From NCBI RefSeq assembly GCF_000169175.1, contig NZ_AAWS01000006.1, positions 135,192 through 199,191 of the forward strand: a stretch of DNA of 64,000 nt, read 5' to 3'. This document shows positions 2,011 through 27,800 of this stretch, piece after piece. Both the position numbers and the translations under genes were made by a program. A model generated the notes under the pieces. The model searched no databases. It was given only the letters and a program-made list of their open reading frames with translations, and was not told the DNA's origin. Every line of letters starts with the position of its first letter. Position 1 is the stretch's first letter. The DNA is from Microscilla marina ATCC 23134 (GTDB taxonomy: Bacteria > Bacteroidota > Bacteroidia > Cytophagales > Microscillaceae).

Positions 2011-2902
2011 TAATATCTTCTTTTCTAACTTTTAAGCTACAGGTGTCGAGCAACAAGTCTCAAGTAGTTTATGGATAAGCCTTTTGTAGCTCGCAACTTG
2101 ATGCTATTACAAATCTACATAATTTTTAAGGTTATTGGAAACACACCATTTTGTCTGCAAATAGTCCGATTTGGTATTTTTTAAAATATGCCAATAAATA
2201 TTAGGTAGGTACTTAGAGGCAAAAAAGGATACCACGAGTAAAAAGCATAAATAGTGTGTGAAATTTTATTTTGATTGAAACTAAAATTAACCTTAATAAG
2301 CAAATAAAAACATAAAAATAACGAATTCAACAAAAATATATAATGTGTGCAATTATTTTTTGCTTCAAAAACATTCACTTTTTATGGTACTCAATTTTCA
2401 CTGTTTCACTTGTGATGCCCCACGATTTGCAAAGAAAATTTTAGGCAAAAAATAAGTAATCACTTATTTTTTGAGAAGCAAAGTATTCACCTCCTGGTTT
2501 TTATAACTGAAGCAGGTCAAACTTGACCTAAGAGCAATTTTATAATCCAAAAGAAAAGCCTGGGCAGGTTCTCTTATCCGCAAAACCAAAGTAAGCACTT
2601 CAAGTGTTGGATTAACACCAAATGAACTGTTTTTTATAAGAGTGCCTCTTGTATAAGTCAAAGTAGCTTTGAGCAATACAACTACACAAATTTTCGCTAA
2701 TTTTAGTCATTTGTTTCCTTCTTTTACCCAGGTTAACAGTCCTGTTTTTATACAATTGGTTTTGTGCCATTTGTGGCATATATTTGATATGTTTGTAAAA
2801 ACTCCTCCGAGCGCTTCTTTAAAATTAGCCAAAGGCAGAGCAGTTGTTTTATTTTAAGAAACCAATAGGTACTTGTTTACCTACATAATAAAAATTCAAA
2901 CT

Positions 2903-4300: not shown

Positions 4301-4324
4301 GGGGTATTTTTGTGGTAAATCTCA

Positions 4325-4360
4325 AAAAGTAGAGGGGTTCTATACCTCTTCTACTTTTTG
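4325..4360 (+). terminator. Imperfect hairpin plus T-run downstream of lpdA (candidate rho-independent terminator)
   Basis: aaaagtagaggggttctatacctcttctactttttg. Confidence 0.35.
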
Positions 4361-4510
4361 AAATTAAATAAAAGCTATTTTTTTGCAAATTTAATATTAT
4401 TTATTACATTGGTCTAGTTTTGAAGCTTTTGCTTTTTTTTTAACAGACCACCAAAAAAGGCATGACATTAACAAAACATTTTTTCTTTCAAAAAACGAAA
4501 AATATCAGGG

Positions 4511-6497: not shown

Positions 6498-6909
6498 AGT
6501 TTTTGATTTTCTACCAAGTGATTTGATTGATGATACAACATGACCATTTGTAAGTATAGTTCTTATCAATTATTAAATAGACCTCTAAGTAGTTATTTTT
6601 TCATCTACACTTAATAAATGTTAATCATAGTATTTGAACTAAAAATAAAAAACATTTTATAATTAATCAATAATCCGCGAAAATGATCGGTTTATAAAAG
6701 GTAGTTTTTAAGTTAACTTTTCCAAAATACAAATTCTAGTAACTATTTCTTATGTTTTCAGTAATATTTAATTGTTTTCAGAAAAATAAGTTTGAGGCAA
6801 GTGGTGTTTTGTATAAAGCAAAAAAAACAAGGTGAGAATTTTATGATAAATTCCCACCTTGTTAAAACGAATATCTATGAGTTGAAGTTGACTAATTTAA
6901 ACGATTATT

Positions 6910-8475: not shown

Positions 8476-8536
8476 ATATCAACCTAGTGATTAATGATAA
8501 ATTTGAGCAAAGTTACGCCAATTTTAAGGCAATAAA

Positions 8537-8578
8537 AAAGGGTATTTATAGATTTTACCCAAAATACCCTTTTTATTG
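8537..8578 (-). terminator. Hairpin plus T-run on the minus strand downstream of htrA
   Basis: aaaaagggtattt...aataccctttttatt (9-bp perfect stem). Confidence 0.4.
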
Positions 8579-8762
8579 TTCAAAAAATTTATTGGTATGT
8601 TTAGTGATCTTTTATAAATAATTTGAGCCATTAAAGTGTATCTATTGCCCTCATTCTTCTCAAAAAAAAAGCCTCATAGCTTTGGCTATGCACCGTTTTT
8701 TTTGAATCGTCTGAGAACAATATATTTTCTTAAATTGGCACATCTTATTTTTTCCAGATCAC

Positions 8763-10244
8763 TTACCAGCCTATAGCATAGTAAGCTTTTTCGCCATTGG
8801 GGTACATTCCTTCTATCGCTATTACCCTTTTACGTTTTTTAATCAAACGCTCAATATCTTTGGGAGAATTGACTGACTCTTCACCAAAGTAAGTGATAAT
8901 GAATCCTTTACGAATGCCTGACTCTTTCAGTTTCCCCTTACCAGCATCAATTACCTTTACTCCATGATCAATCTTGAGTTTGGTTTTTTCACTGAGACTT
9001 ATTCCTTCAAACACCGCACCCAGTATTTTTTCAGTAGCTATTTTGCGTGGAGTACGCATAATTTTAAAGTTTCCCTGGCGGTTACGTAGTGTAGCCATTG
9101 TGCTTAATACCCGCTCGCCACGTGCATAAGTCACCTTTACCTGATCGCCAGGACGTCGAGTAGCAATCAGCGACTGAAGGTCAGCCATATTGCGTACTTG
9201 CTGGTCATCTATTTTAATAATGACATCTCCTATTTTTAGCCCGGCGCTGCGCGCAGCACCTGACTTAGTCAAGGTGGCAATGTACACCCCACTTACTACA
9301 CTCAAATCTTTATTGCTGGCAAAGTTAGCATCTACATTTTGGATAGAAACCCCCAATAACGCCCGTTGGGTTTGTCCATACTTCATGAGGTCATCCAGCA
9401 CCTTTTTCACAATATTTACCGGTATAGCGAATGAATAGCCTGAATAAGAGCCTGTGCGAGTCGCAATGGCAGTATTAATGCCTACCAACTCACCCTTGAG
9501 GTTTACCAGCGCACCACCGCTGTTTCCAGGGTTTACAGCTGCATCGGTTTGAATAAACGACTCTATGGCATACTGTCCACTTAGTATGTTGATGTTTCTG
9601 CCTTTGGCACTTACAATACCCGCAGTTACAGTAGAGGTCAAGTCAAAAGGGTTACCTACTGCCAATACCCATTCACCAATATGGGTTTTATCAGAGTTGC
9701 CATACTTTACAAAAGGCAAATTCTTTTCTTGTATCTTAAGCAAGGCGAGGTCGGTGGTGGGGTCTTTGCCAACAAGTTTGGCTTTATAGCTTCGCTTATC
9801 ATTTAAAACTACATCTATTTGCCCAGCATTTTCTATTACATGATAATTAGTGGCAACATAGCCATTGTCAGTAATAATGACACCAGAGCCAGAAGACTGA
9901 CGGGGGCGACGTTGACGACGGCGATAATTGTCTTCTCCGTGGAACTGCCTGAACATATCTTCTAAAGGGTCTGAAGAAGAAGAGGAGTATTTACCCTTGC
10001 CAGCATAGGTAGTTTTAATATGCACTACGGCAGACTTTACAGCGTTGGCCGCAATTACAAAATTCAAACCTTTGGGTACTTTAATGGTAGAGTCTTTAAG
10101 AAAATTAGCCAGTTGGATATTCTGACGATCCTGAATTGAACGAATGGTTTGCTTGGGTTGTAAGTATTGGTTGAGTTTTACAGCTACAAAGCCCCCTAGT
10201 ATTGATGCCAACAACAGGCTTATTAAATAACTTTTTTTGTTCAT
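8763..10244 (-). CDS. htrA: HtrA/DegP/DegQ-family periplasmic serine protease with PDZ domains
   Basis: Signal/TM N-terminus, catalytic triad contexts NYHVIENA (His), DLALLKI (Asp), GNSGGALVN (Ser), and two PDZ-like segments. Confidence 0.9.
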   Translation of the reverse strand: MNKKSYLISLLLASILGGFVAVKLNQYLQPKQTIRSIQDRQNIQLANFLKDSTIKVPKGLNFVIAANAVKSAVVHIKTTYAGKGKYSSSSSDPLEDMFRQFHGEDNYRRRQRRPRQSSGSGVIITDNGYVATNYHVIENAGQIDVVLNDKRSYKAKLVGKDPTTDLALLKIQEKNLPFVKYGNSDKTHIGEWVLAVGNPFDLTSTVTAGIVSAKGRNINILSGQYAIESFIQTDAAVNPGNSGGALVNLKGELVGINTAIATRTGSYSGYSFAIPVNIVKKVLDDLMKYGQTQRALLGVSIQNVDANFASNKDLSVVSGVYIATLTKSGAARSAGLKIGDVIIKIDDQQVRNMADLQSLIATRRPGDQVKVTYARGERVLSTMATLRNRQGNFKIMRTPRKIATEKILGAVFEGISLSEKTKLKIDHGVKVIDAGKGKLKESGIRKGFIITYFGEESVNSPKDIERLIKKRKRVIAIEGMYPNGEKAYYAIGW

Positions 10245-10662: not shown

Positions 10663-10736
10663 TCCTCCTTAGCTCAGTTGGTTAGAGCATCTGACTGTTA
10701 ATCAGAGGGTCGTTGGTTCGAGTCCAACAGGAGGAG
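10663..10736 (+). tRNA. tRNA-Asn (anticodon GTT)
   Basis: Cloverleaf read by hand: acceptor TCCTCCT/AGGAGGA, D-arm GCTC AGTTGGTTA GAGC, anticodon loop CTGTTAA, T-arm GTTGG TTCGAGT CCAAC, discriminator G. No encoded CCA. Confidence 0.9.
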
Positions 10737-10837: not shown

Positions 10838-10911
10838 TCCTCCTTAGCTCAGTTGGTTAGAGCATCTGACTGTTAATCAGAGGGTCGTTGGTTCGAGTCC
10901 AACAGGAGGAG
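10838..10911 (+). tRNA. tRNA-Asn (anticodon GTT), second identical copy
   Basis: 74-nt sequence identical to the first copy, 175 bp downstream. Confidence 0.9.
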
Positions 10912-12194: not shown

Positions 12195-12796
12195 TGTTTT
12201 TTGTTTGAGGGCGGATAAGAGCTAAGCCTAAAGCAACCAGCACAATACAACATCTAGTAAGTGTTTGGGTCTCCTTTTGAATGGAGCGTACTATTCAGAT
12301 GATGGACTTGTAGAATTGACCTGTTAGTCTTGATCCAGCCCTGGTTCGCGAAAGCTTTATCAAATTGACAAATAAAGTAAAGTATCCTGGCTTGTGGAGT
12401 TTTTCCAGTTACAGTTGCGCGTCAGCTCATGATTTTCACACGATTCCTTATTACTTTATTTGCATAGCGTAAGAGTTTGGTTTTAAACCAAGCCCCCATC
12501 TTGACTTTTAATAATAGATGATAAACACCTTGCTTCCTGCAGAATAGCCTGAGAACTCATCTTTACTTTTAATAATGAAATGTAAACCATTCAAAAAATC
12601 AGGGTGAGTTCTAGCAAAAAGCAAGGTTATTATTTTCGTTTGTATCAAAAACCAAAATGAGTTTACACTCTAAACTATGGCAATAAAGATAACGCAAGAA
12701 GGGATGTTTTCAAAGCAAATATTTACAATGAGGCATAGCTTAGTAAACTACCCAAATAATCTCCTTCATAAAAAAACACCTCTCTTTTAAAAAACG

Positions 12797-14807: not shown

Positions 14808-15458
14808 CTAATTGGCCGTAGTACCTGTAGAAGGTGTTGTGGTATCTTTATTGGTTTCGTTGTCTTGCTTTTTATCTTCAGCATCTTTAAAAAACCTACG
14901 CTGCATGACCAAAATAACTGCTACCCCCAGAAAGATAGCTGAATCGGCAATGTTGAAAATAGGCCAAAGCGCATAATATTGTCCTCCCAACCATTGAGGC
15001 AAATGCCCTTCCCAAATGTCAAGGTAGATCATGTCTATCACTTGCCCATGAAACCAAGGAGTAGGAGAACCGGCAGGAGCATTATTTAAAAACACTCCAT
15101 AAAAAGTACTATCTACCACATTGCCCACCGCTCCGGCAAGTATAAGTGCTACACACCATACAAGCCCAGTATGCGCTTTGCGTTTGACAAGCAACGACAT
15201 GTAGTAAGCAATGCCTACTGTAGCAAGCAAGCGAAACAGGGTAAGGATGAGCTTGCCATATACAGAACCTAGTTTAAGGCCAAACGCCATTCCAGGGTTG
15301 AGTACATAGTGAATTTTGAGCCAGCTTCCCAATACCTTAATTTCCCCAGCCAATCCTGGATCCATATTATAATGTACCAACAATTTTACTGCTTGATCGA
15401 GCAAGATTACGACAAAACTTAATAGAAAGTATTTATATAATTTATGTGTCTTTTTCAT
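14808..15458 (-). CDS. lspA: Lipoprotein signal peptidase (signal peptidase II)
   Basis: Four TM segments, NPGMAFG and FNIADSAIF motifs typical of LspA. Confidence 0.85.
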   Translation of the reverse strand: MKKTHKLYKYFLLSFVVILLDQAVKLLVHYNMDPGLAGEIKVLGSWLKIHYVLNPGMAFGLKLGSVYGKLILTLFRLLATVGIAYYMSLLVKRKAHTGLVWCVALILAGAVGNVVDSTFYGVFLNNAPAGSPTPWFHGQVIDMIYLDIWEGHLPQWLGGQYYALWPIFNIADSAIFLGVAVILVMQRRFFKDAEDKKQDNETNKDTTTPSTGTTAN

Positions 15459-15495: not shown

Positions 15496-16098
15496 TTACG
15501 CAATTGTCTTATATTTTTTTCGGCGTTTTTTGGCAAAAAATTGTTTTTGGCGCACAATAATAACAATAACTCCGATAAAAATTGCGGCATCAGCTATATT
15601 AAAAACTGTAGCAGGGACATATTTTCCACCAACAAAAGGAATCCAATGGGGTAAATACCCACCAAGCAAATCGATGTAAATCATATCTATTACCTGTCCA
15701 TGAAACCAAGCAAAAGGGACATCAGCAGGGGCGTTGTTCAACAAAACCCCATAAAAAACACTGTCGATAAGGTTGCCTATAGCTCCGCCCAAAATGAGCG
15801 CAATGCAATAGATCAAACCTGAATGCGCATGACGATGGAGTAGCCTTCTAAGGTAAAACAAGATGCCAATGGTAGCCAATAACCTAAAAATAGTGAGTGC
15901 CAATTTGCCATAAGTACGCCCCCATTCTACTCCAAATGCCATTCCTGAGTTGAGCTCATACTGCACCTTAAGCCAGTTGCCCAGCAGATTAATTTGTCCC
16001 AAAAAACCTTGACCCATATTAAAGTGTATCCATAGTTTTACTGTATGATCAAGCAAAATCACCCCTAATACAAATACATACACTTTGTAATATTTCAT
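15496..16098 (-). CDS. lspA: Lipoprotein signal peptidase paralog
   Basis: NSGMAFG, FNIADAAIF. About 55% identical to the adjacent lspA. Confidence 0.85.
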   Translation of the reverse strand: MKYYKVYVFVLGVILLDHTVKLWIHFNMGQGFLGQINLLGNWLKVQYELNSGMAFGVEWGRTYGKLALTIFRLLATIGILFYLRRLLHRHAHSGLIYCIALILGGAIGNLIDSVFYGVLLNNAPADVPFAWFHGQVIDMIYIDLLGGYLPHWIPFVGGKYVPATVFNIADAAIFIGVIVIIVRQKQFFAKKRRKKYKTIA

Positions 16099-18381: not shown

Positions 18382-18933
18382 TTATTTTCGACAAATATAA
18401 ACAAATGCAGGGGGGATATTTAAAGGGGTAAAATCACGAGTCACTGAGGGAAACTGTTTTTTGAGCATACCAAAACTTGCCAATGAATATTGAAACTGGG
18501 TATAAACTCCTTCGTCACTCAAAGTGTTTTTGATGGCTTCCATTATATTGGTGTTCAAATCTTTAGGAAAAATAGCCAAGGGCAATCCAGATACAACTGC
18601 ATTGGTATGTATTAGGTTATGTTGCGCCAAATATTCAGGAATTTTCTCAGCAGAATCGGCAATTACGTGTAAACGCTTATCATTAATTCCTTCAAGCAAA
18701 TCTATAAACTTTGGGTTTACCTCAAAACTCAGCAATTGAGCATCAGGTAGCATTTTATCAAGAATAGCTTTTGTAATGCACCCATTACCTGCACCCAGTT
18801 CTACAATAACTTTAGCCTTTGAAAAATCAATAGGCAATAGCATTTTACGAATCAAAAAACGAGAGCTTTGAGCAATGGTACCCGCTTGCCTGATATTTTT
18901 AGTAGCTTCAAAAAAAAATTGTAGACGGTTCAA
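18382..18933 (-). CDS. Class I SAM-dependent methyltransferase (small, RrnaAD/PEMT-like)
   Basis: VIVELGAGNGCITKAIL (motif I GxGxG), followed by LSFEVN (motif II-like). Confidence 0.7.
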   Translation of the reverse strand: MNRLQFFFEATKNIRQAGTIAQSSRFLIRKMLLPIDFSKAKVIVELGAGNGCITKAILDKMLPDAQLLSFEVNPKFIDLLEGINDKRLHVIADSAEKIPEYLAQHNLIHTNAVVSGLPLAIFPKDLNTNIMEAIKNTLSDEGVYTQFQYSLASFGMLKKQFPSVTRDFTPLNIPPAFVYICRK

Positions 18934-19278
18934 ATCTGAGAGAGTTTAAATGTAATTGCTGATAATAAAGCTTTGCAAAGCTACAAGGCTGGGGGCACAA
19001 ATCAAAAGATACACCCACTAGTCCGCCATAAAATACACTCTGTAGCTCCCCAAAACATTTATCCAAGCCCAGGAAAACGCATACAAAAAAAACAGAAAAT
19101 ACACTCTTGTTATCCTACAAGAATATATTTTCTATGTTGAAACTTGCCTGTATAATGCGCTTATGCTCTCTATGCAGTGATGCTTTTCATTGATTTTAGG
19201 GATATTTTCCAGTTCATAATCCTTTCATTCTACTCACACAAACCACAGAGATAAGTTATTACAATGAAGGATACATTT

Positions 19279-19692
19279 TTAAGACTTACTCACTTTTGTT
19301 TCTTTACCAAGCAACCACTCCCTAGCTTCTGGCTCATTGTCAAAGTATTTCAATGCGGTCTCCATGTTTTGCACTGTCTGCTCAATACTCAGTTGTGATA
19401 TAAACTCTGCTGCTACTACCATTGCTGATTTAGGGGGCAGATAATCATTAAACTGTTGCGTTACCCAGTCTTGCAGCTCAGGATCAACTATAAAGTTAAA
19501 ATCTTGAGTCAACGACAAACTACCAACAAAAGGGTGATGATCACGAAAAACTTTCGCCAGTGCCAGTATTTCAGGTCTATATTGATCAACCGTAAGGTGC
19601 TGGGTACTGGAAGTCCACTTACTTATTATCCAAGAGTTTTCCGAATCATAAGAAACTTCCAGAAAGTCACTTTTATACTCTAATTCTACCAT
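19279..19692 (-). CDS. Paralog 1 of 9: small conserved protein, tentatively SpoIIAA-like/STAS-SEC14-like (PF11964-like) fold. Function unknown.
   Basis: MVELEYKSDFLEVSYDSENSWIISKWT...LSLTQDFNFIVDP...KSAMVVAAEFISQLSIEQTVQ...YFDNEPEAREWLLGK. Family consensus is shared across the nine copies. Confidence 0.8.
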   Translation of the reverse strand: MVELEYKSDFLEVSYDSENSWIISKWTSSTQHLTVDQYRPEILALAKVFRDHHPFVGSLSLTQDFNFIVDPELQDWVTQQFNDYLPPKSAMVVAAEFISQLSIEQTVQNMETALKYFDNEPEAREWLLGKETKVSKS

Positions 19693-20115
19693 TGCCTGAT
19701 AATTTATTGGTTTACTATATAAAAATAGAGAGTAAAATAAGGCATACTTTACCCTGCTATAAATTATTACTTATTAAATAATATGTTATAAATGCCTGTT
19801 AGCTTTCTTTCAACCTCGCTTTAAACATAGAACTCATCTCGTCTTTTAATAATGAGTTGCAAATCGTTCAAAAAAGTCAGACGAGCTCATATCCAATACT
19901 GCTATAAAAATCAATGATTTGTGTAGTTTTGGACTGTTACTTCATCAAATACAAGCACAAGGTGCTGGATTCTATTCAAGTAAAAAGTAACCAAAAATAA
20001 TTGTTGTGAAAGGTCAGTGAGCTTGTATATTAAAGCTACTGTATTTATTCTCTTTTCTGGTTCGTAATCCTTCCACACAAACCTCAAAAGCAAGCTACAG
20101 GTAACCGTACGGTTG

Positions 20116-20526
20116 TTAATTCTCACTCACTTTTGTTTGGTTCATGAGCCATTCTCTAGCTTCTTGCTCGTTTGAGAAATAATTAACTATTATATCCATG
20201 CTTTGCACTGTTTGCTCAATACTCAGTTGTGACACAAACTCTTGTGCTACTACCACTGCAGATTTAGAAGGCTGGTATCCTTCAAATTGCTGAGTTAACC
20301 ATTCCTGCGTTTCAGGATCAAGTATAAAGTAAAAATCTTGAGTCAATGCCAAACTACCAAAAACGGGCTTATGGTCAATAAAAGCCTGACATACCACCAA
20401 CACTTCCTGTTTGTATTGATCAATGGTAAGATAGCGGGTATTAGGTGTCCATTTACTTATCACCCAAGAATTTTCTGAATCATAAGAAACTTCGAGAAAT
20501 TCGCTTTTATACTCTAATTCTATCAT
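20116..20526 (-). CDS. Paralog 2 of 9 (same family)
   Basis: MIELEYKSEFLEVSYDSENSWVISKWTPNTRYLTIDQYKQE...YFSNEQEAREWLM. Confidence 0.8.
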   Translation of the reverse strand: MIELEYKSEFLEVSYDSENSWVISKWTPNTRYLTIDQYKQEVLVVCQAFIDHKPVFGSLALTQDFYFILDPETQEWLTQQFEGYQPSKSAVVVAQEFVSQLSIEQTVQSMDIIVNYFSNEQEAREWLMNQTKVSEN

Positions 20527-20768
20527 TGCCTGATAATTTATTGGTTTATTATATAAAAATAGAGAGCAAAATAAGACATACCCTACACTCTATAAGTTAT
20601 TATTTATCAAATAATACGTTATAAACACCTGTCAGTTTCCTTTGAATCTAAATTTCCAATGGCTTAAAACTCCCCTTCTGATGATATAGAAAGTGCTTAT
20701 AGGCTCCTGTTTTCCTTTTCCCCACAAAAACCACCAAGGTGAGTGCTACTACAGTTCAATCTTTGAGT

Positions 20769-21173
20769 TTAGCTCATTTTTGTTTTATCAAGCAACCATT
20801 CCTTAGCTTCTGACTCATTGTCAAAATAACGAACTATTACATCCAGATCTTGCACAGTTTGCTCAATGCTCAATTGTGATACAAACTCTGATCCTACTAC
20901 TATTGCTGATTTAGAGGGAAGGTACCCTTCAAAAATTTTTGTTATCCATTCCTGCATTTCAGGATCAACCACAAAATGAAAGTCTTGGGTTAATGACAAA
21001 ATGCCTGCAAGAGGTTGGTGATCCACAAAAACCTTAAGTAATGCCAATGTTTCCTGTTTGTATTGGTCAATAGTAAGGTAACGAGTGTTGTCTGTCCACT
21101 TGTTCACCACCCAAGAGTTTGCCGAATCATAAGAAACTTCTAGAAAATCACTTTTGTACTCTAATTCTATCAT
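20769..21173 (-). CDS. Paralog 3 of 9 (same family)
   Basis: MIELEYKSDFLEVSYDSANSWVVNKWTDNTRYLTIDQYKQE...YFDNESEAKEWLL. Confidence 0.8.
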   Translation of the reverse strand: MIELEYKSDFLEVSYDSANSWVVNKWTDNTRYLTIDQYKQETLALLKVFVDHQPLAGILSLTQDFHFVVDPEMQEWITKIFEGYLPSKSAIVVGSEFVSQLSIEQTVQDLDVIVRYFDNESEAKEWLLDKTKMS

Positions 21174-21317
21174 TGCCTGATAATTTATTTGTTTAATTAT
21201 ATAAAATAGAGAGCAAAATAAATCACACTTTACCCTCTACAAGTTATTACTTATCAAATAATACGTTATAAGCGTATGTAAGTGCCCTTTCAATCTAATT
21301 TTCCAATGACTTAAAGT

Positions 21318-21716
21318 TTATTTTACTTTACCAATCAACCAATCCCTGGCTTCTGGTTCATTGTCAAAGTAGCGAACCATCACATCCATATTTTGTAATG
21401 TTTGCTCAATACTCAGTTGTGATACAAACTCGGCTGCTACTACCATTGCAGATTTAGGGGGCAAATAATCATTAAACTGTTGTGCTGTCCATTCCTGCGT
21501 TGCAGGATCAATCACAAAGTGAAAATCTTGAGTCAGGGACAAATTACAAGCAAAAGGATAATGGTTCATAAAAACCTCACGTGCCGCCAATATTTCCTGT
21601 TTGTATTGGTCAATTGTAAGATGACGGGTATTGGGTGTCCACCTAGTTACCACCAAAGAGTTTTCCGAGTCATAAGAAATCTCAATAAATTCACTTTTGT
21701 ACTCTAATTCTATCAT
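21318..21716 (-). CDS. Paralog 4 of 9 (same family)
   Basis: MIELEYKSEFIEISYDSENSLVVTRWTPNTRHLTIDQYKQE...YFDNEPEARDWLIGK. Confidence 0.8.
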   Translation of the reverse strand: MIELEYKSEFIEISYDSENSLVVTRWTPNTRHLTIDQYKQEILAAREVFMNHYPFACNLSLTQDFHFVIDPATQEWTAQQFNDYLPPKSAMVVAAEFVSQLSIEQTLQNMDVMVRYFDNEPEARDWLIGKVK

Positions 21717-21962
21717 TGCCTGATGATTTATTGATTATATAAAAATAGAGCGTAAAACAAGTCACACTTTACCCTCTACAAGTTGTTAATTATCAAATAA
21801 TACGTTGTAAACGTATGGAAGTACCCTTTCAATCTAATTTTCTAATGACTTAAAATTCCCTTCTGATGACACGAAAAAGAGTACCAGTTCACTATCCTTT
21901 TACCCTACCCACAAAACCACTGGGGTAAGCAGTTACCACAATTTAATGTGCAGTCTTCAAGT

Positions 21963-22361
21963 TTAGCTTGCTTTGCCAAGCAACCAATCCTCGGCTTCAG
22001 ATTGACTGGCAAAGTATTTCACTGCGGTGTCCAAATCTTGCACTGTTTGCTCAATACTCAGTTGTGATACAAACTCTGCTGCTACTACCACTGCAGATTT
22101 AGGGGGCATATAATCAGTAAACTGTTGTACCACCCACTGCTGCAGGATGGGATCAATCACAAAGTGAAAATCCTGGGTTAATGACAAACTACCAGCAAAG
22201 GAATGATGGTCAACAAAAATCTGACGTAATGCCACTACTTCTGGCTTGTATCGGTCAATTGTAAGGTGACGGGTATTGGGTGTCCACCTACTTATCACCC
22301 AAGAATTTTCTGAATCATAAGAAACTTCGAGAAATTCACTTTTGTACTCTAATTCTACCAT
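21963..22361 (-). CDS. Paralog 5 of 9 (same family)
   Basis: MVELEYKSEFLEVSYDSENSWVISRWTPNTRHLTIDRYKPE...YFASQSEAEDWLLGK. Confidence 0.8.
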   Translation of the reverse strand: MVELEYKSEFLEVSYDSENSWVISRWTPNTRHLTIDRYKPEVVALRQIFVDHHSFAGSLSLTQDFHFVIDPILQQWVVQQFTDYMPPKSAVVVAAEFVSQLSIEQTVQDLDTAVKYFASQSEAEDWLLGKAS

Positions 22362-22594
22362 TGCCTGATTATTTATTGGTTAATTATATAAAAATAAAGA
22401 ATAAAATAGGGTATATTTCATTCTTTATCAAATAATACGTTATAAGTAGCAGCCAGTTTCTTTTCCATTGGCTTAAAATTCCCCTTGCGAGGATATAGAA
22501 AATGTTTATAGATTTCTAATTCATACATCTTTCATTTTCCCTACATAAACCATTAGGATAAGTACTACCACAGTTTAATGTATAGCCTTTAAGT

Positions 22595-23002
22595 TTAGCT
22601 CACTTTTTTTGCTTTACCAAGCAACCAATCCTTGGCTTCAGATTGACTGGCAAAGTATTTCACTGCGGCCTCCAGATCTTGCGCTGTTTGCTCAATACTC
22701 AGTTGCGATACAAACTCTGCTGCTACTACCACTGCGGATTTCGGGGGCATGTAACCAGTAAACTGTTGTACCACCCACTGCTGTGTTGCAGGATCAATTA
22801 CAAAGTAAAAATCTTGAGCCAACAATAAACTACCAGCAAAGGGATGATGGTCAACAAAAGCCTGACGAAACGCCATTACTTCCTGTTTGTATTGGTCAAT
22901 TGTAAGGTGAAGGGTATTGGGTGTCCACCTGGTTATCACCCAAGAATTTTCCGAATCATAAGAAATCTCTAGAAATTCACTTTTGTACTCTAATTCTACC
23001 AT
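22595..23002 (-). CDS. Paralog 6 of 9 (same family)
   Basis: MVELEYKSEFLEISYDSENSWVITRWTPNTLHLTIDQYKQE...YFASQSEAKDWLLGK. Confidence 0.8.
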   Translation of the reverse strand: MVELEYKSEFLEISYDSENSWVITRWTPNTLHLTIDQYKQEVMAFRQAFVDHHPFAGSLLLAQDFYFVIDPATQQWVVQQFTGYMPPKSAVVVAAEFVSQLSIEQTAQDLEAAVKYFASQSEAKDWLLGKAKKVS

Positions 23003-23239
23003 TGCCTGATAATTTATTTGTTGATTATATAAAAATAGAGAATAAAATAAGGCGTATTTTATCCTCTATCAAATAATACGTTATAAGCACCAGCCAGTTT
23101 CTTTTCCAATGGCTTAAAATTCCCCTTGCGATGATATAGAAAAATGCTTACAAGTTTCTAATTCATACATCTTTCATTTTCCCTACACAAACCACTAGCG
23201 TAAGCACTGCCACAGTTTAATGTGTAGCCTTTAAGTTAT

Positions 23240-23644
23240 TTAGCTTACTTTTTCTTTACCAATCAACCACTCCCTGGCTTCAGGTTCATTGTCAAAGTAT
23301 TTCACTGCGGTCTCCATATCTTGTACTGTTTGTTCAATACTCAGTTGTGCTACAAACTCGGCTGCTACTACCACTGCCGATTTAGGGGGCAGATAATCAT
23401 TAAGTTGTTGTGCCGTCCATTCCTGCGTTGCAGGATCAATCACAAAGTAAAAATCTTGATTCAGCGACAAATTGCAAGCAAAAGGATAATGATTAATAAA
23501 AACCTGACGTACCGCCAATATTTCCTCTTTGTATTGGTCAATTGTAAGGTGAAGGGTATTGGGTGTCCACTTACTGATCACCCAAGAGTTTTCCGAATCA
23601 TAAGAAACTTCGAGAAATTCACTTTTGCACTCTAATTCTATCAT
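23240..23644 (-). CDS. Paralog 7 of 9 (same family). Near-identical to paralog 8.
   Basis: MIELECKSEFLEVSYDSENSWVISKWTPNTLHLTIDQYKEEILAVRQVFINHYPFACNLSLNQDFYF... Confidence 0.8.
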   Translation of the reverse strand: MIELECKSEFLEVSYDSENSWVISKWTPNTLHLTIDQYKEEILAVRQVFINHYPFACNLSLNQDFYFVIDPATQEWTAQQLNDYLPPKSAVVVAAEFVAQLSIEQTVQDMETAVKYFDNEPEAREWLIGKEKVS

Positions 23645-23878
23645 TACCTGATAATTTATTTGTTGATTATATAAAAATAGAGAATAAAATAAGGCGTATT
23701 CTATCCGCTATCAAATAATACGTTATAAGCACATGCCAATTTCTTTTCCAATGGCTTAAAATCCCCTTTCCAAATCATATAGAAAAATGCTTATAGGTTT
23801 CTAATTCATACATCTTTCACTTTCCCTGTACCAACCATCGCAGTAAGCACTGCCATAATCTAATGTATGCCTTTAAAT

Positions 23879-24283
23879 TTAGCTTGCTTTTTCTTTACCA
23901 AGCAACCATTCCCTAGCCTCTGGTTCATTGTCAAAGTATTTCACTGCGGTCTCCATATCTTGTACTGTTTGTTCAATACTCAGTTGTGCTACAAACTCGG
24001 CTGCTACTACCACTGCCGATTTAGGGGGCAGATAATCATTAAGTTGTTGTGCCATCCATTCCTGCGTTGCAGGATCAATCACAAAGTGAAAATCTTGATT
24101 CAGCGACAAATTGCAAGCAAAAGGATAATGATTAATAAAAACCTGACGTACCGCCAATATTTCCTCTTTGTATTGGTCAATTGTAAGGTGAAGGGTATTG
24201 GGTTTCCATCTACTGATTACCCAAGAGTTTTCCGAATCATAAGAAACTTCGAGAAATTCACTTTTGTACTCTAATTCTACCAT
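23879..24283 (-). CDS. Paralog 8 of 9 (same family). Near-identical to paralog 7.
   Basis: MVELEYKSEFLEVSYDSENSWVISRWKPNTLHLTIDQYKEEILAVRQVFINHYPFACNLSLNQDFHF... Confidence 0.8.
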   Translation of the reverse strand: MVELEYKSEFLEVSYDSENSWVISRWKPNTLHLTIDQYKEEILAVRQVFINHYPFACNLSLNQDFHFVIDPATQEWMAQQLNDYLPPKSAVVVAAEFVAQLSIEQTVQDMETAVKYFDNEPEAREWLLGKEKAS

Positions 24284-24520
24284 TGCCTAGTAATTTATTT
24301 GTTGATTACATAAAAACATAGAATAAAATAAGGTATATTTTATCCTCTATCAAATAATACGTTATAAACACATGCCAGTTTCTTTTCAATCTAAACTTCC
24401 AATCCCCCTTCCAAATCATATAGAAAAATGCTTATAGATTTCTAATTCATACATCTTTCACTTTCCCTGTACCAACCATCGCAGTAAGCACTGCCATAAT
24501 CTAATGTATAGCCTTTAAAT

Positions 24521-24925
24521 TTAGCTTGCTTTTTCTTTACCAAGCAACCATTCCCTAGCCTCTGGTTCATTGTCAAAATAACAAACTGCTCCATCTAAGC
24601 TCTGAAGTGTTTGTTCAATACTCAACTGCGACACAAACTCTGCCGCTACTATTGTTGCCGATTTGGCAGGAAAATAACCTTCAAACTGTAGCATTACCCA
24701 ATCTTGCAGTTCAGGGGCAACTATAAAGTTAAAATCCTGAGCCAATGACAAGTTGCCAGTAAGAGGTTGGTGATTAGCGAAAGCCTTCACCAGTGCATGT
24801 ATTTCGCGTTTGTATTGGTCGACAGTGAGGTAACTGGTATTGGCTGTCCACTTACTTATTACCCAAGAATTTTCCGAATCATAAGAAATTTCCAAAAAAT
24901 CGCTTTTGTACTCTAATTCTATCAT
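24521..24925 (-). CDS. Paralog 9 of 9 (same family)
   Basis: MIELEYKSDFLEISYDSENSWVISKWTANTSYLTVDQYKRE...YFDNEPEAREWLLGK. Confidence 0.8.
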   Translation of the reverse strand: MIELEYKSDFLEISYDSENSWVISKWTANTSYLTVDQYKREIHALVKAFANHQPLTGNLSLAQDFNFIVAPELQDWVMLQFEGYFPAKSATIVAAEFVSQLSIEQTLQSLDGAVCYFDNEPEAREWLLGKEKAS

Positions 24926-25054
24926 TAACTGATAATTTATTGGTTTACTATATTAAAAATAGAGGGCAAAATAAATCACACTTTACCCTTTTGTTACTAT
25001 TTACTATCTATCTAAAAAATACGTTATAAACACCTGCGAGTTTCTCCGTTTAAT

Positions 25055-26950
25055 CTAATTTTCCAATGACTTAAAATCCCCTCTGATAATACGAAATCGC
25101 TTACGGGCTTCTACCACATAAATACTCCCAGGAAATTTCGTTAAGTGGTTTCGGTAATATTCCTTGGCTTTCTCAGGGTTTTTAAGGTATTCTTCGTAGA
25201 TTTTTCCTATGGTAAAATGGGCATCATCAGCCAATATATCTTGCCCATGCTGTTTTACAATTTGTTCAAGCACTTCGATGGTTTCTTGAAATTTAGCCAT
25301 TTTAAGCAGTAACTTAGATTTGCTCCATAAAATTTCATCTTTCAAACTGTGGTCTTTGTACTTTTTTTCCATCTCAACCAGCTTATCCAAAGCTTCTTTA
25401 TCTTTATGCTGAAACATCAACAGCTCTACTCCAGCGTAGGCTTTCATTGCCGAGTTGGTAGTGTCCATATCCAATGCAGTGTTATCCCTGATCAATAAAC
25501 TCAAATTCATTGCGTCGTTGGCAATTTCACGGGTAGTGGCTTCTTTCAAAATATCTAAATGCCCCTGTGCCAACTCAAAATCGCCCTTAAAATAAGAAAG
25601 TTTCCCATTGCGTAGCTTTGCCTCATACCCTAAAGGCCTTCTCTTTCGCGTTTTCTCCACCTGTGAGTAAAGCAAAGTAGCTTCCCAGGGTTCTCCCTTC
25701 AAAATATAAATATCGCCCAGGTCGAGGCGGCATTGGGCTATAAAGCGTTGATTGTACCCGCTCAGTTTGATAGCATCTTTTAAAGTAACCACTGCAGTGT
25801 CTTTCTTATCAAGATAAAAAGCCTGTAATAACGCAATGCTTCTCATGGCGTTCAACGTACGAAAGTTGCGCCCCAGGTCTTTCAATAGCTGGCTATAGTC
25901 ACCAATTAATGACTCAATATCAGTTCTAGCTACGGGGTAAGTGTTCTTTACTACTGCTTCTTTGGCTTTGATTAAGTAATGGCGAGCCACTGAATAATTG
26001 CTACCTTTCGGATACTTCTTGACCACATAGGCAAACATTCGCTTGGCATTTTTGTAGTCCTCATTGCGCATAGCAATCATTCCAATGTTCAACAATTCGC
26101 TCCCTTCCTGTCGATAACGTCGGTCAAGTGCTTTGGCTTGAATAAAGGCTCTGTAAAACAACTTTTGTTGTAAATAGATCCAGAGTAGAAACTCGTTATA
26201 GATAATCTCACCAGGCTGCTTCTGTAGCTTTGTAAGCAATATTTTTTCAAACTTCTCTAAGTCTTTTTGAGTTGTCAGGCGATCTTGCAAGGCTCCTTTG
26301 ACAGATTCCAGGTTTTTGCGATCGTCCAATGCGACATTGATATATTCATCAATCATTGGTTCAAACTTGCCCAAAGTAGCATACACATTGGCCAGTTCTT
26401 GAGCAAACAGGTACTTGTTGGCAATGCCTCGGCGGGCATTCAAATATATCTTCTCTGCCCAGGTAGCTTTATCAAGCAATACAAAGTGCTCAGCGGCCGC
26501 TGACACCACGTGATCAGGTTTCTTACGTACATCATTCACCACCCGCTCGAACTGCTTGTCAGCCCGCCCTATCTTGCCTTGTCGTTCGAGTACAAAGCCA
26601 TAGTCAATAGGCAAAGTAGGATTTTCAGGCTCAATTCGCATGCGTCGCTTAATCAATTTTTCGGCATCTTTAAATTGTTTTTGAGCCAGCAACGACGCCA
26701 GGTAGTTAGTATAGACTTGTTGTAGGTAGGTGGTACGCAGTGAAAGTTTTTCATATAAACTATTGGCTTTTTCATACTCCTTCTTCTGAAAGTACTCATC
26801 TGCCAATTGTAGGTTTTTATTTTGTGCCACTGCTTGCGGTGGCATAATCAAATTTGCAAATATTATGATCCCTAACATCAAAAAAAATCGGGTAATGGTC
26901 TGATTCATTTTTTTATCTTTTTTTATTTCATGGCTAATATTCATGTTCAT
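25055..26950 (-). CDS. Tetratricopeptide-repeat protein with N-terminal signal peptide/TM
   Basis: MNQTITRFFLMLGIIIFANLIMPPQAVAQ, then repeated TPR-like A/Y/L-spaced helices (YEKANSLYEK, FKDAEKLIKRR, EYKNAKRMFAYVVKKYP). The true start may be the internal ATG at 26908. Confidence 0.75.
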   Translation of the reverse strand: MNMNISHEIKKDKKMNQTITRFFLMLGIIIFANLIMPPQAVAQNKNLQLADEYFQKKEYEKANSLYEKLSLRTTYLQQVYTNYLASLLAQKQFKDAEKLIKRRMRIEPENPTLPIDYGFVLERQGKIGRADKQFERVVNDVRKKPDHVVSAAAEHFVLLDKATWAEKIYLNARRGIANKYLFAQELANVYATLGKFEPMIDEYINVALDDRKNLESVKGALQDRLTTQKDLEKFEKILLTKLQKQPGEIIYNEFLLWIYLQQKLFYRAFIQAKALDRRYRQEGSELLNIGMIAMRNEDYKNAKRMFAYVVKKYPKGSNYSVARHYLIKAKEAVVKNTYPVARTDIESLIGDYSQLLKDLGRNFRTLNAMRSIALLQAFYLDKKDTAVVTLKDAIKLSGYNQRFIAQCRLDLGDIYILKGEPWEATLLYSQVEKTRKRRPLGYEAKLRNGKLSYFKGDFELAQGHLDILKEATTREIANDAMNLSLLIRDNTALDMDTTNSAMKAYAGVELLMFQHKDKEALDKLVEMEKKYKDHSLKDEILWSKSKLLLKMAKFQETIEVLEQIVKQHGQDILADDAHFTIGKIYEEYLKNPEKAKEYYRNHLTKFPGSIYVVEARKRFRIIRGDFKSLEN

Positions 26951-27060: not shown

Positions 27061-27800
27061 TGCTTTCAAGCGAAAAGCTTCTAACCTCTTTTAAATAAAG
27101 AACAATAAATTATTTAATTACTTAAGTATTATTATTATTATCATGCTGTGGATAACTTTTGTTTTTCACTTGAGAATATTTTCCTGCCAATATTGCTAAA
27201 TATACATTGTCGAGGTTCACTTTTATTTCGAGGAGTTATACCCACCTTATTCGATTTGTCCACATACTTATCCACATTGTTTCAATTTGTTTTGCTAAAA
27301 TCATGATCGAGAATCGATGTTGATAACCCCTATTTTTTGGTGGATAAACATGTGGATAAATTGTGGATAAACAAAGGGTTTTACACACCCCTATAGTTTT
27401 TCAACATTGGAGTTAAAGTTATCCACCTAAATATGTGGACAAATCAGGCACTTATCCACACAATTTTTAGGGTTATCCACAGGTTTTGTGGATAATGTGG
27501 ATAAGTAGTGGGGGGATCTATGACTTGAAACTAGAGTTATCTACGTTGATTTTTAACATTTGTGGATAAATTAATGGTTTATCCACAAAGTTATCCACAT
27601 TTATAGTCGAGTCTGTTGACATAAATAGCATTACATTCGATAATATCGCTTGGTTTTCGATAAGTATTTGCTGTCAATTGGTGTAGAAAGCCATTTAATT
27701 ATTTAGGTGTAGCAATATGTTTAATCTATTAAATGGCTAATGAGGAGTTGTTTTCGAAGAAAAGTAAGTAGCAGAGGTTATCCACAAATCAATATAAAAT
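27061..27800. other. Putative chromosomal replication origin (oriC): DnaA-box cluster plus adjacent AT-rich candidate unwinding element (27061-27140)
   Basis: Perfect TTATCCACA/TGTGGATAA 9-mers at 27147, 27268, 27351, 27362, 27452, 27473, 27488, 27497, 27561, 27579, 27591 and 27779. One-mismatch boxes at 27256, 27339, 27419 and 27434. 600 bp with no ORF. The preceding stretch ttaaataaagaacaataaattatttaattacttaagtattattattattatc is more than 85% AT. Confidence 0.6.

Follow-up and report, generated by a model that had tools for sequence, protein, structure and literature searches.

Nine open reading frames of 132-137 aa, all on the minus strand, occupy positions 19279-24925 of the window, the 64,000-nt stretch of Microscilla marina DNA that was analysed. 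They were named M9 to M1 in coordinate order, with M1 adjoining the gene of a conserved TPR protein (Table 1), and 9/9 were intact. The ORF list and the alignment bore out a first-pass annotation of this DNA, which had described nine same-strand genes of this size with a strict consensus, bounded by a TPR protein. The nine proteins aligned without internal gaps, giving 54 invariant columns. Their pairwise identity was 64-95% (median 68%), so that of the 55-95% claimed earlier the upper bound held and the lower did not. At the DNA level the copies differed by 3-29%; M2 and M3 shared 97% of their nucleotides (dS 0.08). The genes lay in a tandem DNA repeat unit of ~640 bp, which also held conserved non-coding blocks, with unit spacings of 834, 647, 543, 645, 641, 642, 639, and 642 bp. 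Ten flanking genes were scanned, and the neighbours were the conserved TPR protein, a Big_5 lipoprotein, TetR, a methyltransferase, RimM, and S16. The methyltransferase gene, beyond the terminator-like hairpin, had its own canonical Bacteroidota promoter motif (18976-19006). The proposed oriC was confirmed ~2.2 kb from the array by 17 DnaA boxes at 27147-27786, at the GC-skew minimum.

Table 1. Positions of the array genes, their control cassettes and the bounding features in the window.
Feature	Position	Strand	Remarks
TPR gene, last codons and stop	25055..25081	-	GGGGATTTTAAGTCATTGGAAAATTAG; source of the relics in every unit; repeat family D7 includes 25046-25082
M1 cassette	24926..25054	-	Box A 25013-25029; GAAAC-N16-CGTA 25020-25044; hairpin 24957-25002 (core 24963-24989); AT-rich to ATG
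M1	24521..24925	-	134 aa; closest to TPR gene; orthologue U1 (91% aa)
M2 cassette	24284..24408	-	TPR-tail relic from 24408; GAAAC-N16-CGTA 24358-24382; Box A 24351-24367; hairpin 24315-24351
M2	23879..24283	-	134 aa; used for structure model; recent duplicate with M3
M3 cassette	23645..23766	-	TPR-tail relic from 23766; Box A 23712-23728; hairpin 23676-23712
M3	23240..23644	-	134 aa
M4 cassette	23003..23125	-	TPR-tail relic from 23125; GAAAC-N16-CGTA 23077-23101; Box A 23070-23086; hairpin 23034-23070
M4	22595..23002	-	135 aa; orthologue U3 (92% aa)
M5 cassette	22362..22484	-	TPR-tail relic from 22484; GAAAC-N16-CGTA 22436-22460; Box A 22429-22445; hairpin 22393-22429
M5	21963..22361	-	132 aa; orthologue U2 (88% aa)
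M6 cassette	21717..21860	-	full relic including TAG (GGGAATTTTAAGTCATTAGAAAATTAG) from 21860; Box A 21794-21810; hairpin 21745-21779
M6	21318..21716	-	132 aa; 3' flank deleted
M7 cassette	21174..21317	-	whole spacer; relic abuts M6 stop codon; Box A 21255-21271; hairpin 21206-21240
M7	20769..21173	-	134 aa; orthologue U6 (93% aa, dS 0.16)
M8 cassette	20527..20675	-	TPR-tail relic from 20675; GAAAC-N16-CGTA 20615-20639; Box A 20608-20624; hairpin 20559-20593
M8	20116..20526	-	136 aa; nearest counterpart U4 (74% aa)
M9 cassette	19693..19835	-	degenerate relic; Box A variant 19775-19791 (2 mismatches); hairpin 19725-19760
M9	19279..19692	-	137 aa; last copy; positional counterpart U7 (downstream flanks match)
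Terminator-like hairpin	19092..19135	-	strong; 19 pairs + T8; closes array ~145 nt past M9 stop codon

A conserved 5' flank preceded 9/9 copies, as had been claimed, although its length was ~120-145 nt rather than about 50 bp. It was composed of a relic of the TPR 3' end, a motif we call Box A (TTATAACGTATTATTTG), a hairpin followed by a T-run, and 30 AT-rich nucleotides before the ATG. Box A, located upstream of the cassette hairpin, which is itself terminator-like, was almost invariant across the nine cassettes. It was matched 10 times versus 0.6 expected; nine matches were the array units and the tenth, with 3 mismatches, was at 53571. The hairpin (ΔG -9 to -17 kcal/mol) was kept in 16/16 units of the two Microscilla arrays described below, with a G-C/A-U swap (8 versus 6 copies), and the canonical Bacteroidota promoter motif was absent in 9/9 spacers. 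The conserved 3' motif of the earlier description was recovered as ~75 alignable nucleotides after most copies, but not after M6, where its deletion makes the next unit begin directly after the stop codon, nor intact after M8, where an insertion interrupts it. An insertion of ~190 nt lay upstream of the M9 cassette (~19836-20115). At first, conserved flanks are simply what the duplication of a 640-bp unit would leave. However, the mean pairwise identity of Box A was 0.87 versus 0.66 at 4-fold and third-codon positions (neutral sites), and this excess shows that the flanks are functional. Since the cassettes are near-identical and conserved above neutrality, the nine genes are most likely separate transcription units answering one shared signal, judging from the cassette sequences.

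The array is real and old, a lineage-specific tandem expansion of one gene in the genus Microscilla. The last TPR codons persisted as a relic in each unit's spacer, which indicates growth by repeated unequal crossing-over of a segment comprising TPR tail, control region, gene, and 3' flank. The ancestral gene sat just downstream of the TPR-protein gene, 2 kb from oriC, and each exchange copied a ~640-bp unit that started within the last TPR codons and ran through the control region between the genes and the ORF into ~110 nt of 3' flank. Later recombination, to which the disagreement between promoter-type and coding-type groupings points, shuffled, added, and removed units to leave nine copies versus seven. 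The seven-copy array was found in syntenic position in an uncultured Microscilla (independent assembly, L001), with the orthologue pairs M1-U1, M4-U3, M5-U2, and M7-U6 88-93% identical. Given this synteny and these clear pairs, most duplications predate the split of M. marina and the uncultured Microscilla. The dS within the M. marina array had a median of 0.68 and reached 1.5; that of the flanking genes between the two species was 0.14-0.33. All array copies were under purifying selection, with dN/dS of 0.15-0.43 among them (sliding-window maximum ≤ 0.52) and 0.07-0.19 for paralogues kept as orthologues in both species.

The array proteins are stand-alone cytoplasmic proteins of ~134 aa with a SpoIIAA-like (STAS) α/β fold. 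Within PF11964 ("STAS/SEC14") they belong to a large branch found mainly in Cytophagales. The resemblance to PF11964 noted earlier was supported by Pfam matches of all nine copies at 17-22 bits, under the cut-off of 25, and PF01740 STAS was not matched by array copies at E ≤ 1. The AlphaFold model of M2 (pLDDT 88.5, pTM 0.83) was uncertain at residues 101-112, after α3. The invariant core (W26, T30, Q74, W76, the α3 motif SQLSIEQ, F117, and W126) mapped to the α1/α2/α3 "switch" region. An array-specific N-terminal β-hairpin, α3, and β1-β2 were invariant across copies, and variability among paralogues fell mainly on helices α1 and α2. The switch position at the start of α2 was Asp in 8/9 copies and Ala in M1; in 64% of the wider family, Ser or Thr occupies it.

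The nearest known system is the PF11964/DUF3478 'SpoIIAA-like' proteins (2q3l, 2ook; Kumar et al. 2010, PMC2954212). The array proteins share with them the packing cluster described there (Ala on β4, Phe on β5, Ala..Trp-Leu on α4), a conserved Trp in the α2 switch helix, and a usually acidic residue at the phospho-serine position. The array branch differs in its own invariant SQLSIEQ at the α3 end together with Q74 and W26, in three extra predicted N-terminal β-strands, and in its mainly Cytophagales distribution; the His/Asp/Tyr switch residues reported from the Shewanella proteins were not evident. The earlier claim that the family in this arrangement is undescribed is plausible for the array: no nine-copy tandem array is known to have been described for PF11964, and literature searches found nothing about this one. 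The proteins themselves already have the name "STAS/SEC14 domain-containing protein" in NCBI and UniRef.

The wider family comprised 3,777 clusters at 50% identity, essentially confined to Cytophagales among the named records examined. Relatives were mostly single-copy and in ordinary chromosomal contexts, with 1-4 copies elsewhere and four as the tandem maximum found. A histidine kinase or SpoIIE phosphatase stood beside about one fifth of the family loci elsewhere: SpoIIE phosphatases directly adjoined relatives in L022, L042, L045, L049, and L067, and HisKA/HATPase kinases in L014, L015, L021, L046 (twice), L076, and L077. Compared with the within-locus background, this adjacency did not reach significance (Fisher p = 0.09 and 0.15); as a hint of function it is suggestive. 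SDR dehydrogenases were neighbours in at least seven loci (immediately downstream in L044 and L072), Microscillaceae clusters of 2-3 copies came after plsX-fabH-accB-accC, and natural two-domain fusions occurred among relatives.

We consider the array as a whole somewhat better explained than not as an old Microscilla-specific tandem expansion whose products are co-regulated isoforms of a binding or adaptor protein, alike in their core and variable on one surface. The paralogues would be co-expressed isoforms of one protein, the invariant core of each binding the same ligand or a common partner and a second, variable surface (α1/α2) giving each its specificity. They would act by binding rather than by a classical phospho-serine switch, given Asp at the switch position in 8/9 copies. 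Their likely targets would be signalling enzymes, since relatives repeatedly adjoin histidine kinases and SpoIIE phosphatases. This is the weakest step. None of the ten flanking genes scanned encodes a kinase or phosphatase, and the SDR and fatty-acid synthesis contexts of other relatives make a small-molecule role fit at least as well. The "diversified ligand-binding modules" suggested in the first-pass annotation are a possible reading. Like the stressosome (RsbR paralogues plus RsbS), the array provides several diverged STAS-fold paralogues per genome, and its invariant N-terminal hairpin and α3, with the two-domain fusions of relatives, parallel the conserved stressosome assembly surface. 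RsbR paralogues, however, have sensor domains at their N termini and are either dispersed or grouped with RsbT in a single operon, whereas the array copies have separate control cassettes and neither an extra domain nor an RsbT-like kinase. Stressosome-like co-assembly of the copies would be pure speculation by analogy.

A rival that we judge unlikely, yet the most serious, makes the proteins Sec14-like carriers, each with a non-polar ligand inside a cavity that α2 and α3 close off, with isoforms tuned to related ligands and no signalling partner. The conserved aromatic and polar core of the switch region (PMC2954212), model uncertainty falling exactly after α3, and the SDR and plsX-fabH-accB-accC contexts speak for it. 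Yet the ligand-carrier role of PF11964 proteins is itself a proposal, and the Tyr-Asp pair that PMC2954212 locates in the cavity is not evident in the array branch. The SDR and fatty-acid contexts are a minority of loci, some mutually orthologous, and thus amount to few independent observations. Canonical partner-switching, in which an anti-sigma kinase would phosphorylate the α2-start serine of SpoIIAA/RsbV-type antagonists and a PP2C phosphatase would remove the phosphate, appears improbable. SpoIIAA, RsbV, and RsbS (PF01740) are likewise small single-domain cytoplasmic proteins, relatives of the array proteins often have SpoIIE-type PP2C phosphatases and HATPase kinases beside them, and the Ser/Thr preference of the wider family and the five SpoIIE loci fit. 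But the array copies lack both the PF01740 match and the phosphorylatable serine, S/T/D-Pro-Glu is also a generic helix cap, the adjacency is not significant, and the ten flanking genes scanned in the window include no anti-sigma kinase, sigma factor, or PP2C gene. To our knowledge, antagonists of this type have never been reported as nine tandem paralogues.

Equally little probability attaches to dosage amplification, whereby all copies would be functionally equivalent and the array, aided by oriC proximity, would only raise expression. The dense DnaA-box cluster, the (near-)identical cassettes, the very recent M2/M3 duplicate, and the differing copy number agree with it. Interchangeable dosage copies, however, tend to be homogenised or lost, whereas most copies here are old and just 64-75% identical, and individual paralogues remain recognisable as constrained orthologues in two species, the pattern of distinct retained functions. 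The first-pass suggestion of immunity proteins or a contingency (phase-variable) locus, which the overall appearance of the diversified tandem array would fit, was rejected as very improbable. M1 matched Imm22 (PF14112) marginally (E 0.0099, 17 bits versus a cut-off of 27), but no defence or immunity profile exceeded its cut-off and PADLOC gave no match. Toxin, effector, Rhs, CDI, and secretion-system genes were absent from the flanking genes scanned, and no inverted repeats, recombinase, simple-sequence tracts, or mobile-element features were found at the array. The family had no phage or mobilizable-plasmid matches, its six plasmid matches being on non-mobilizable replicons; its members elsewhere are mostly single-copy, and the array is one intact family under purifying selection with orthologues conserved between species. 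An assembly artefact, raised earlier as a caveat and favoured by nothing, can be practically dismissed in view of the divergence of the copies, the unit-specific insertions and deletions in the spacers, and the syntenic array in an independent assembly of another Microscilla. As in generic expansions by unequal crossing-over, a neighbour-gene relic marks the unit boundaries, close relatives differ in copy number, a single recent duplicate stands among old copies, and promoter and coding groupings disagree. Unlike in such expansions, all array copies are intact under purifying selection, and the non-coding cassette shows above-neutral conservation in all 16 units of two species.

The array consisted of nine minus-strand ORFs of 132-137 aa each, numbered M1 to M9 starting from the copy that adjoins the TPR gene. 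All nine aligned without internal gaps and with 54 invariant columns, and the consensus quoted in the first-pass annotation proved correct. The copies were also diverged as it had described, over a slightly narrower range than its 55-95%: pairwise identity was 64-95% (median 68%, 129 shared codons). At the DNA level the locus was a tandem repeat of about 640 bp, with spacings of 834, 647, 543, 645, 641, 642, 639, and 642 bp. An assembly artefact was ruled out by nucleotide differences of 3-29% between copies, by spacer indels unique to single units, and by a syntenic array in a second, independent assembly. The locus is a real, old, well-preserved, and lineage-specific tandem expansion of one family. 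As a paralogue expansion it is an ordinary type of genome feature and opens no new class of system.

The birth of the array could be read from its spacers, which held copies of GGGGAATTTTAAG(Y)CATTGGAAAATTAGATTGAAAGG. The copy heading the array is the genuine 3' end of the TPR gene (...GDFKSLEN plus stop), and the relics in the M6 and M7 units retained the TAG. The duplicated unit therefore began within the last codons of the TPR gene and extended across the intergenic control region and the ORF to take in about 110 nt of 3' flank. Flank conservation, as annotated for each gene, is primarily a by-product of duplicating the whole unit. With such a fossil of the TPR end in every unit, the array provides a textbook record of tandem-array birth, with an unusually clear origin and an unusually conserved cassette. 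Later changes included a deletion of the M6 3' flank, leaving a spacer of 147 nt, and an insertion of about 190 nt between M8 and M9. The TPR protein was 37% identical end to end to a protein in a distant metagenomic contig and is a conserved resident gene. An ancient linkage between the family and the TPR gene was rejected: one distant locus (L009) carried both within 5 kb, in a different gene order, and this was treated as coincidence.

A second array was located in an uncultured Microscilla sp., on a contig of 11 kb (L001), where TetR, Big_5 lipoprotein, and a 631-aa TPR protein were ordered as in M. marina and preceded seven copies (U1-U7). Since the sequence 3' of U7 matched that 3' of M9, this array is complete at seven. 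Two of its spacers were interrupted, by insertions of about 260 nt upstream of U3 and about 330 nt upstream of U5. Orthologue pairs between the arrays were M1-U1 (91% amino acid identity, dS 0.58), M4-U3 (92%, 0.50), M5-U2 (88%, 0.53), and M7-U6 (93%, 0.16), with dN/dS of 0.07-0.19. The dS of flanking genes between the two genomes was 0.33 for TPR, 0.31 for Big_5, and 0.14 for TetR, and paralogue dS inside M. marina had a median of 0.68 and a maximum of 1.5. Most duplications are therefore older than the divergence of the two lineages, M2/M3 being the one recent pair (97% nucleotide identity, dS 0.08). The orthologues were not colinear between the arrays, and the "short" and "long" cassette forms disagreed with the coding-sequence groups, M6 coding like M2/M3 yet having a long cassette, which points to continuing unequal exchange. 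All array copies were intact, with pairwise dN/dS of 0.15-0.43. No 15-codon window had pN/pS >0.52 as a sign of positive selection, and the few single sites with pN >= pS each rested on too few changes for any claim. Intact copies at such dN/dS are the mark of retained, distinct functions.

Coordinates of features in the M. marina window and in two comparison loci
Feature	Sequence	Position	Strand	Remark
Nine-gene array	window	19279-24925	-	M1 to M9
M1	window	24521-24925	-	copy adjoining the TPR gene
M9	window	19279-19692	-	last copy
TPR gene 3' end	window	25055-25081		head of the array
Terminator	window	19092-19135		just past the array; found by terminator scan
Methyltransferase gene	window	18382-18933	-
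Promoter motif TTTG-N-TAnnTTTG	window	18976-19006	-	just upstream of the methyltransferase gene
Box A match outside the array	window	53571		three mismatches
oriC candidate	window	27147-27786		DnaA-box cluster
Smaller DnaA-box group	window	39939-39983		perfect or near-perfect boxes
Smaller DnaA-box group	window	61322-61501		perfect or near-perfect boxes
lspA paralogue	window	14808-15458	-	Peptidase_A8, E 2e-33
lspA paralogue	window	15496-16098	-	Peptidase_A8, E 3e-29
MVP-like gene	window	30729-33272	-	847 aa
Cobalamin riboswitch	window	12360-12512	-	Rfam RF00174, 46.7 bits
tRNA gene	window	10663-10736
tRNA gene	window	10838-10911		score identical to the other tRNA gene
Interrupted spacer upstream of U3	L001	~6626-7118
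Interrupted spacer upstream of U5	L001	~8167-8835
Four tandem family members	Chondrinema litorale plasmid unnamed13 (L076)	2599-5113		one very divergent

Profile searches placed the proteins near PF11964 (SpoIIAA-like), the sole Pfam family matched. Seven of the nine copies matched at 16.9-21.8 bits (E 3e-4 to 1e-2), all below the gathering score of 25 bits, over profile positions 9-105 of 106; the other two gave no match to it. Among 105 aligned family members, 58 matched PF11964 at E <= 0.01 (best 8e-7), and every other family was matched by at most three. Some relatives carried a precomputed PF11964 assignment, and a Chondrinema relative scored 25.9 bits. A profile search matched the nine proteins to M. 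marina ATCC 23134 entries labelled hypothetical, and in UniRef they are named "STAS/SEC14 domain-containing protein". Scanning the copies against NCBIfam gave only noise (TIGR02220, 16-17 bits vs a cut-off of 67), and a profile search of PDB sequences gave no meaningful match. PF01740 (STAS) matched no copy even at E <= 1 and none of the 105 relatives at E <= 0.01, so the array proteins are not canonical PF01740 STAS proteins. From these sequence relationships we filed the array as a putative divergent branch of PF11964 (DUF3478, STAS/SEC14), linked to it via intermediates.

The AlphaFold model of M2, built on the family alignment, had a pLDDT of 88.5 and a pTM of 0.83, with low confidence at 101-112 only. 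It ran through three N-terminal β-strands, α1 (35-52), β, α2 (71-84), β, α3 (95-104), β, and α4 (120-127), a SpoIIAA-like α/β fold nearest to the solved PF11964 members. In PF11964 structures, α4 is packed on the sheet by a cluster of Ala88 and Gly91 (β4), Phe114 (β5), and Ala120, Trp123, and Leu124 (α4) (PMC2954212, section 3.4). None of the nine copies deviated at A90, F117, A123, W126, or L127, and the spacing of 6, 3, and 1 was that of the cluster; the Gly91 equivalent was V93/A94, the glycine not being kept. Across 92 relatives F117 and W126 were invariant, A90 and A123 nearly so, and L127 less conserved. The F..EA..WL motif, which the first-pass annotation had likened to PF11964 proteins, is therefore a PF11964 hallmark. 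The first-pass assignment of family and fold was supported. A second PF11964 cluster forms the switch region (His6, Gly7, Thr30, His31, Tyr34, Trp71 in the α2 "switch" helix, Asp72, and Asp73), where α2 and α3 enclose a hydrophobic cavity (PMC2954212). By sequence comparison, W76 (α2) and T30 (start of α1) of the array look equivalent to Trp71 and Thr30, and the His and Tyr-Asp switch residues had no clear counterpart in the array proteins. What set the branch apart was W26, Q74, S102, E104, and Q105, invariant in the array and in 92 of 92 non-array relatives; the last three lie in the SQLSIEQ motif at the end of α3.

The distribution of variation was examined over the 16 proteins of the two arrays. 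Residues 1-20 (β1-β2) and α3 with SQLSIEQ were almost invariant, and changes were concentrated at three places: residues 40-53, the latter half of α1; residues 72-83 of α2; and a loop spanning 107-115. Invariance of the N-terminal hairpin is specific to the array, since few parts of the protein vary as much in the wider family. Compared to a pS of about 0.5 elsewhere, that of the hairpin was only mildly reduced (0.36), and the constraint therefore acts mainly on the protein; gene conversion or a nucleotide-level effect was rejected as the main cause on the same comparison. Dimer contacts of PF11964 proteins run through β1 (PMC2954212). Two relatives, P0123 (306 aa) and P0124 (273 aa), were natural fusions of two family domains, the second domain of P0123 being without the SQLSIEQ core, and these fusions suggest that family domains may work as pairs. 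Taken with the β1 contacts, they make a common oligomerisation surface of the array proteins a reasonable, though putative, proposal.

When 1.84 billion cluster representatives were scanned, 3,777 clusters matched at E <= 1e-3, and at E <= 1e-30 there were 284; nearly all were stand-alone proteins of about 133 aa. The named sources were mostly Cytophagales (Microscillaceae, Bernardetiaceae, Thermonemataceae, Thermoflexibacter, Rhodoflexus, Eisenibacter, and Chondrinema), and a few MAG labels indicated other taxa. In the fetched loci, all of which were scanned with an HMM, the gene was mostly single-copy, with pairs and triplets also occurring, and seven or nine tandem copies in Microscilla only. 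The largest array apart from Microscilla was the set of four on a Chondrinema litorale megaplasmid, which had a signalling context: a HisKA-HATPase kinase lay adjacent, and the flanks also carried a PAS protein and two response regulators. Searches of the literature covering PF11964/DUF3478, Microscilla together with STAS, and partner switching in Bacteroidetes gave no mention of the array or its branch.

Each unit carried the same control cassette 5' to its gene, in the order of the TPR-tail relic ending AAAGGAAACT, Box A, a hairpin with a T-run, and a leader of about 30 AT-rich nt (TATATAAT.AAACCAATAAATTATCAGGCA) preceding the ATG. Box A, TTATAACGTATTATTTG, was exact in six copies and had one or two mismatches in three. 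It was matched 10 times in the window vs 0.6 expected, nine of the matches being the array units, and among the other fetched loci it was found in the second Microscilla array only. Its mean pairwise identity was 0.87 vs 0.66 at 4-fold and third-codon sites; Box A is therefore under selection. The hairpin (11-16 bp, ΔG -9 to -17 kcal/mol, 3' end 28-34 nt upstream of the ATG) was kept in all 16 units of the two arrays, with a swap at one pair (G-C in 8 units vs A-U in 6) and many G-U/A-U changes. Of the nine cassette hairpins, two were picked up by a terminator scan, which also detected a much stronger terminator just past the array. The spacers gave no Rfam match at either gathering or permissive thresholds. 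The cassette of U5 is split by the insertion between its hairpin and AT-rich leader, and U5 may be regulated differently from the other copies.

Promoter scans of sigma-70 type gave no excess (23 vs 22.2 in shuffles), and the canonical Bacteroidota motif TTTG...TAnnTTTG was absent from all nine spacers. Its occurrence upstream of the methyltransferase gene shows that the Bacteroidota consensus is used in the M. marina genome, though missing from the array units. A different arrangement, GAAAC-N16-CGTA, was exact upstream of M1, M2, M4, M5, and M8 and of U1, U2, U6, and U7, had one mismatch at M3, and was degenerate for M6, M7, and M9; these counts are not independent, the units being related by descent. 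The CGTA belongs to Box A, and the spacing was fixed with 8 variable nt in between. ECF-sigma promoters have a -35 element with AAC and a -10 element with CGT, about 16-17 nt apart. The arrangement resembles such a promoter, which we take as a lead only. Two architectures are possible, one in which a candidate ECF-type promoter is followed by the leader hairpin, and one in which the hairpin terminates the preceding unit and a putative promoter overlaps it. Under either, the identity of the cassettes implies a single common signal for all nine genes, and a cassette so compact and sharply conserved could reveal which regulator acts on it and which condition induces the genes.

The first-pass annotation had regarded immunity-protein arrays and contingency loci as typical settings for such diversified tandem copies, and neither reading held for this locus. 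Ten flanking genes were scanned (LspA twice, S16, RimM, a small secreted protein, the methyltransferase, TPR, the Big_5 lipoprotein, TetR, and an MVP-like protein), and none of them indicated a partner for the array proteins. No toxin-like neighbour was among them; a single marginal Imm22 match (E 0.0099) was recorded. The nine copies were intact members of one family at low dN/dS rather than mixed or degenerate cassettes, a pattern that also fits poorly with arms-race diversification. PADLOC matched no array copy to a defence system. Its weak generic matches to the methyltransferase (mad2), probably reflecting only a generic methyltransferase domain, and to a 164-aa ORF (AbiEii, E 4e-4) were judged uninformative. 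Phage searches with the family gave no matches, and plasmid matches were only on non-mobilizable Cytophagales megaplasmids. As for a contingency locus, there were no inverted repeats >=30 nt in 18900-25300 and no recombinase among the neighbours, and the cassettes all had the same orientation and were intact in every unit. With no defence or phage match, only non-mobilizable plasmids, and neither inverted repeats nor recombinase, both readings were therefore rejected. Interchangeable dosage copies were likewise a misfit with a selection pattern of retained distinct functions.

PP2C phosphatases are classical partners of STAS proteins, and for this reason the neighbours of the wider family are suggestive of a signalling association: SpoIIE or HisKA/HATPase genes were immediate neighbours in about 12 of some 63 non-redundant loci, an enrichment that fell short of significance when compared with the within-locus background (p = 0.09 and 0.15). 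A SpoIIE-type PP2C phosphatase was directly adjacent in L022, L042, L045, L049, and L067 and near in L043 and L026, and a PAS/HisKA/HATPase histidine kinase was adjacent in L014, L015, L021, L046 (twice), L076, and L077. A canonical antagonist of SpoIIAA/RsbV type is improbable for the array itself, which had no PF01740 match, no conserved phosphorylatable Ser/Thr at the α2 N-terminus, and no cognate kinase/anti-sigma or PP2C gene among the ten flanking genes. The SpoIIAA phospho-serine equivalent, which directly precedes the invariant P71 that opens α2 and was mapped topologically by secondary-structure position rather than by residue-level structural alignment, was Asp (D70) in eight copies, with M1 having Ala. 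It was Ser/Thr in 59 of 92 relatives (64%), and S/T/D-Pro-Glu is a generic helix cap as well. The best reading is that the array proteins would be co-regulated isoforms of one binding or adaptor protein, sharing an invariant core site, differing on a second surface, and acting without a canonical phospho-switch. Its main rival is a Sec14-like carrier of small ligands. A more elaborate scheme, which we consider improbable, would have the isoforms co-assemble through the N-terminal β-hairpin and α3 into mixed oligomers, a stressosome-like or partner-switch hub made from minimal STAS-fold subunits only. One alternative (ECF-type) sigma factor would turn on the whole block via the common cassette, and the variable α1/α2 faces would connect the hub with distinct histidine kinases or SpoIIE phosphatases of this signalling-rich gliding bacterium. 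PF11964 and its Cytophagales branch, comprising thousands of sequence clusters, have no established function so far. Nine diverged, co-regulated copies and a seven-copy counterpart in a sister lineage form a natural experiment, which shows the fixed parts (the SQLSIEQ helix, Q74/W76, and the N-terminal hairpin) and the parts free to specialise (helices α1 and α2).

Metabolic neighbours were also recorded in the wider family. SDR dehydrogenases were neighbours in at least seven loci, and a plsX-fabH-accBC block adjoined the two- to three-copy clusters of Microscillaceae. The conserved Microscillaceae locus (L006/L037, L032, L073) contained rpmF-plsX-fabH-accB-accC, a P450 in some cases, a ThiF-like gene, two to three family copies, a gene of about 165 aa, an SDR in some loci, and MacB-type transporters. 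This link to a fatty-acid synthesis block recurs in several Microscillaceae.

The array had been placed about 2 kb from a putative replication origin, and this was upheld: a DnaA-box cluster lay 2.2 kb away at the cumulative GC-skew minimum. It contained 17 DnaA-box matches, 12 of them perfect TTATCCACA, within a 950-nt stretch without ORFs that separates the TPR gene from the Big_5 gene, and by these sequence features is a strong oriC candidate. Over the whole window 45 boxes were matched vs 20.3 ± 4.1 in shuffles, and two smaller groups were seen elsewhere. No dnaA gene was among the ten scanned genes. The array genes were co-directional with the leftward replication fork. On the opposite side from the array, about 3 kb beyond the oriC candidate, the MVP-like gene encoded a protein with MVP_shoulder (E 3e-29), Vault_3, and Band_7 matches. 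Most bacteria have a single lspA; here two paralogues stood in tandem, and the window also held a cobalamin riboswitch and two tRNA genes.
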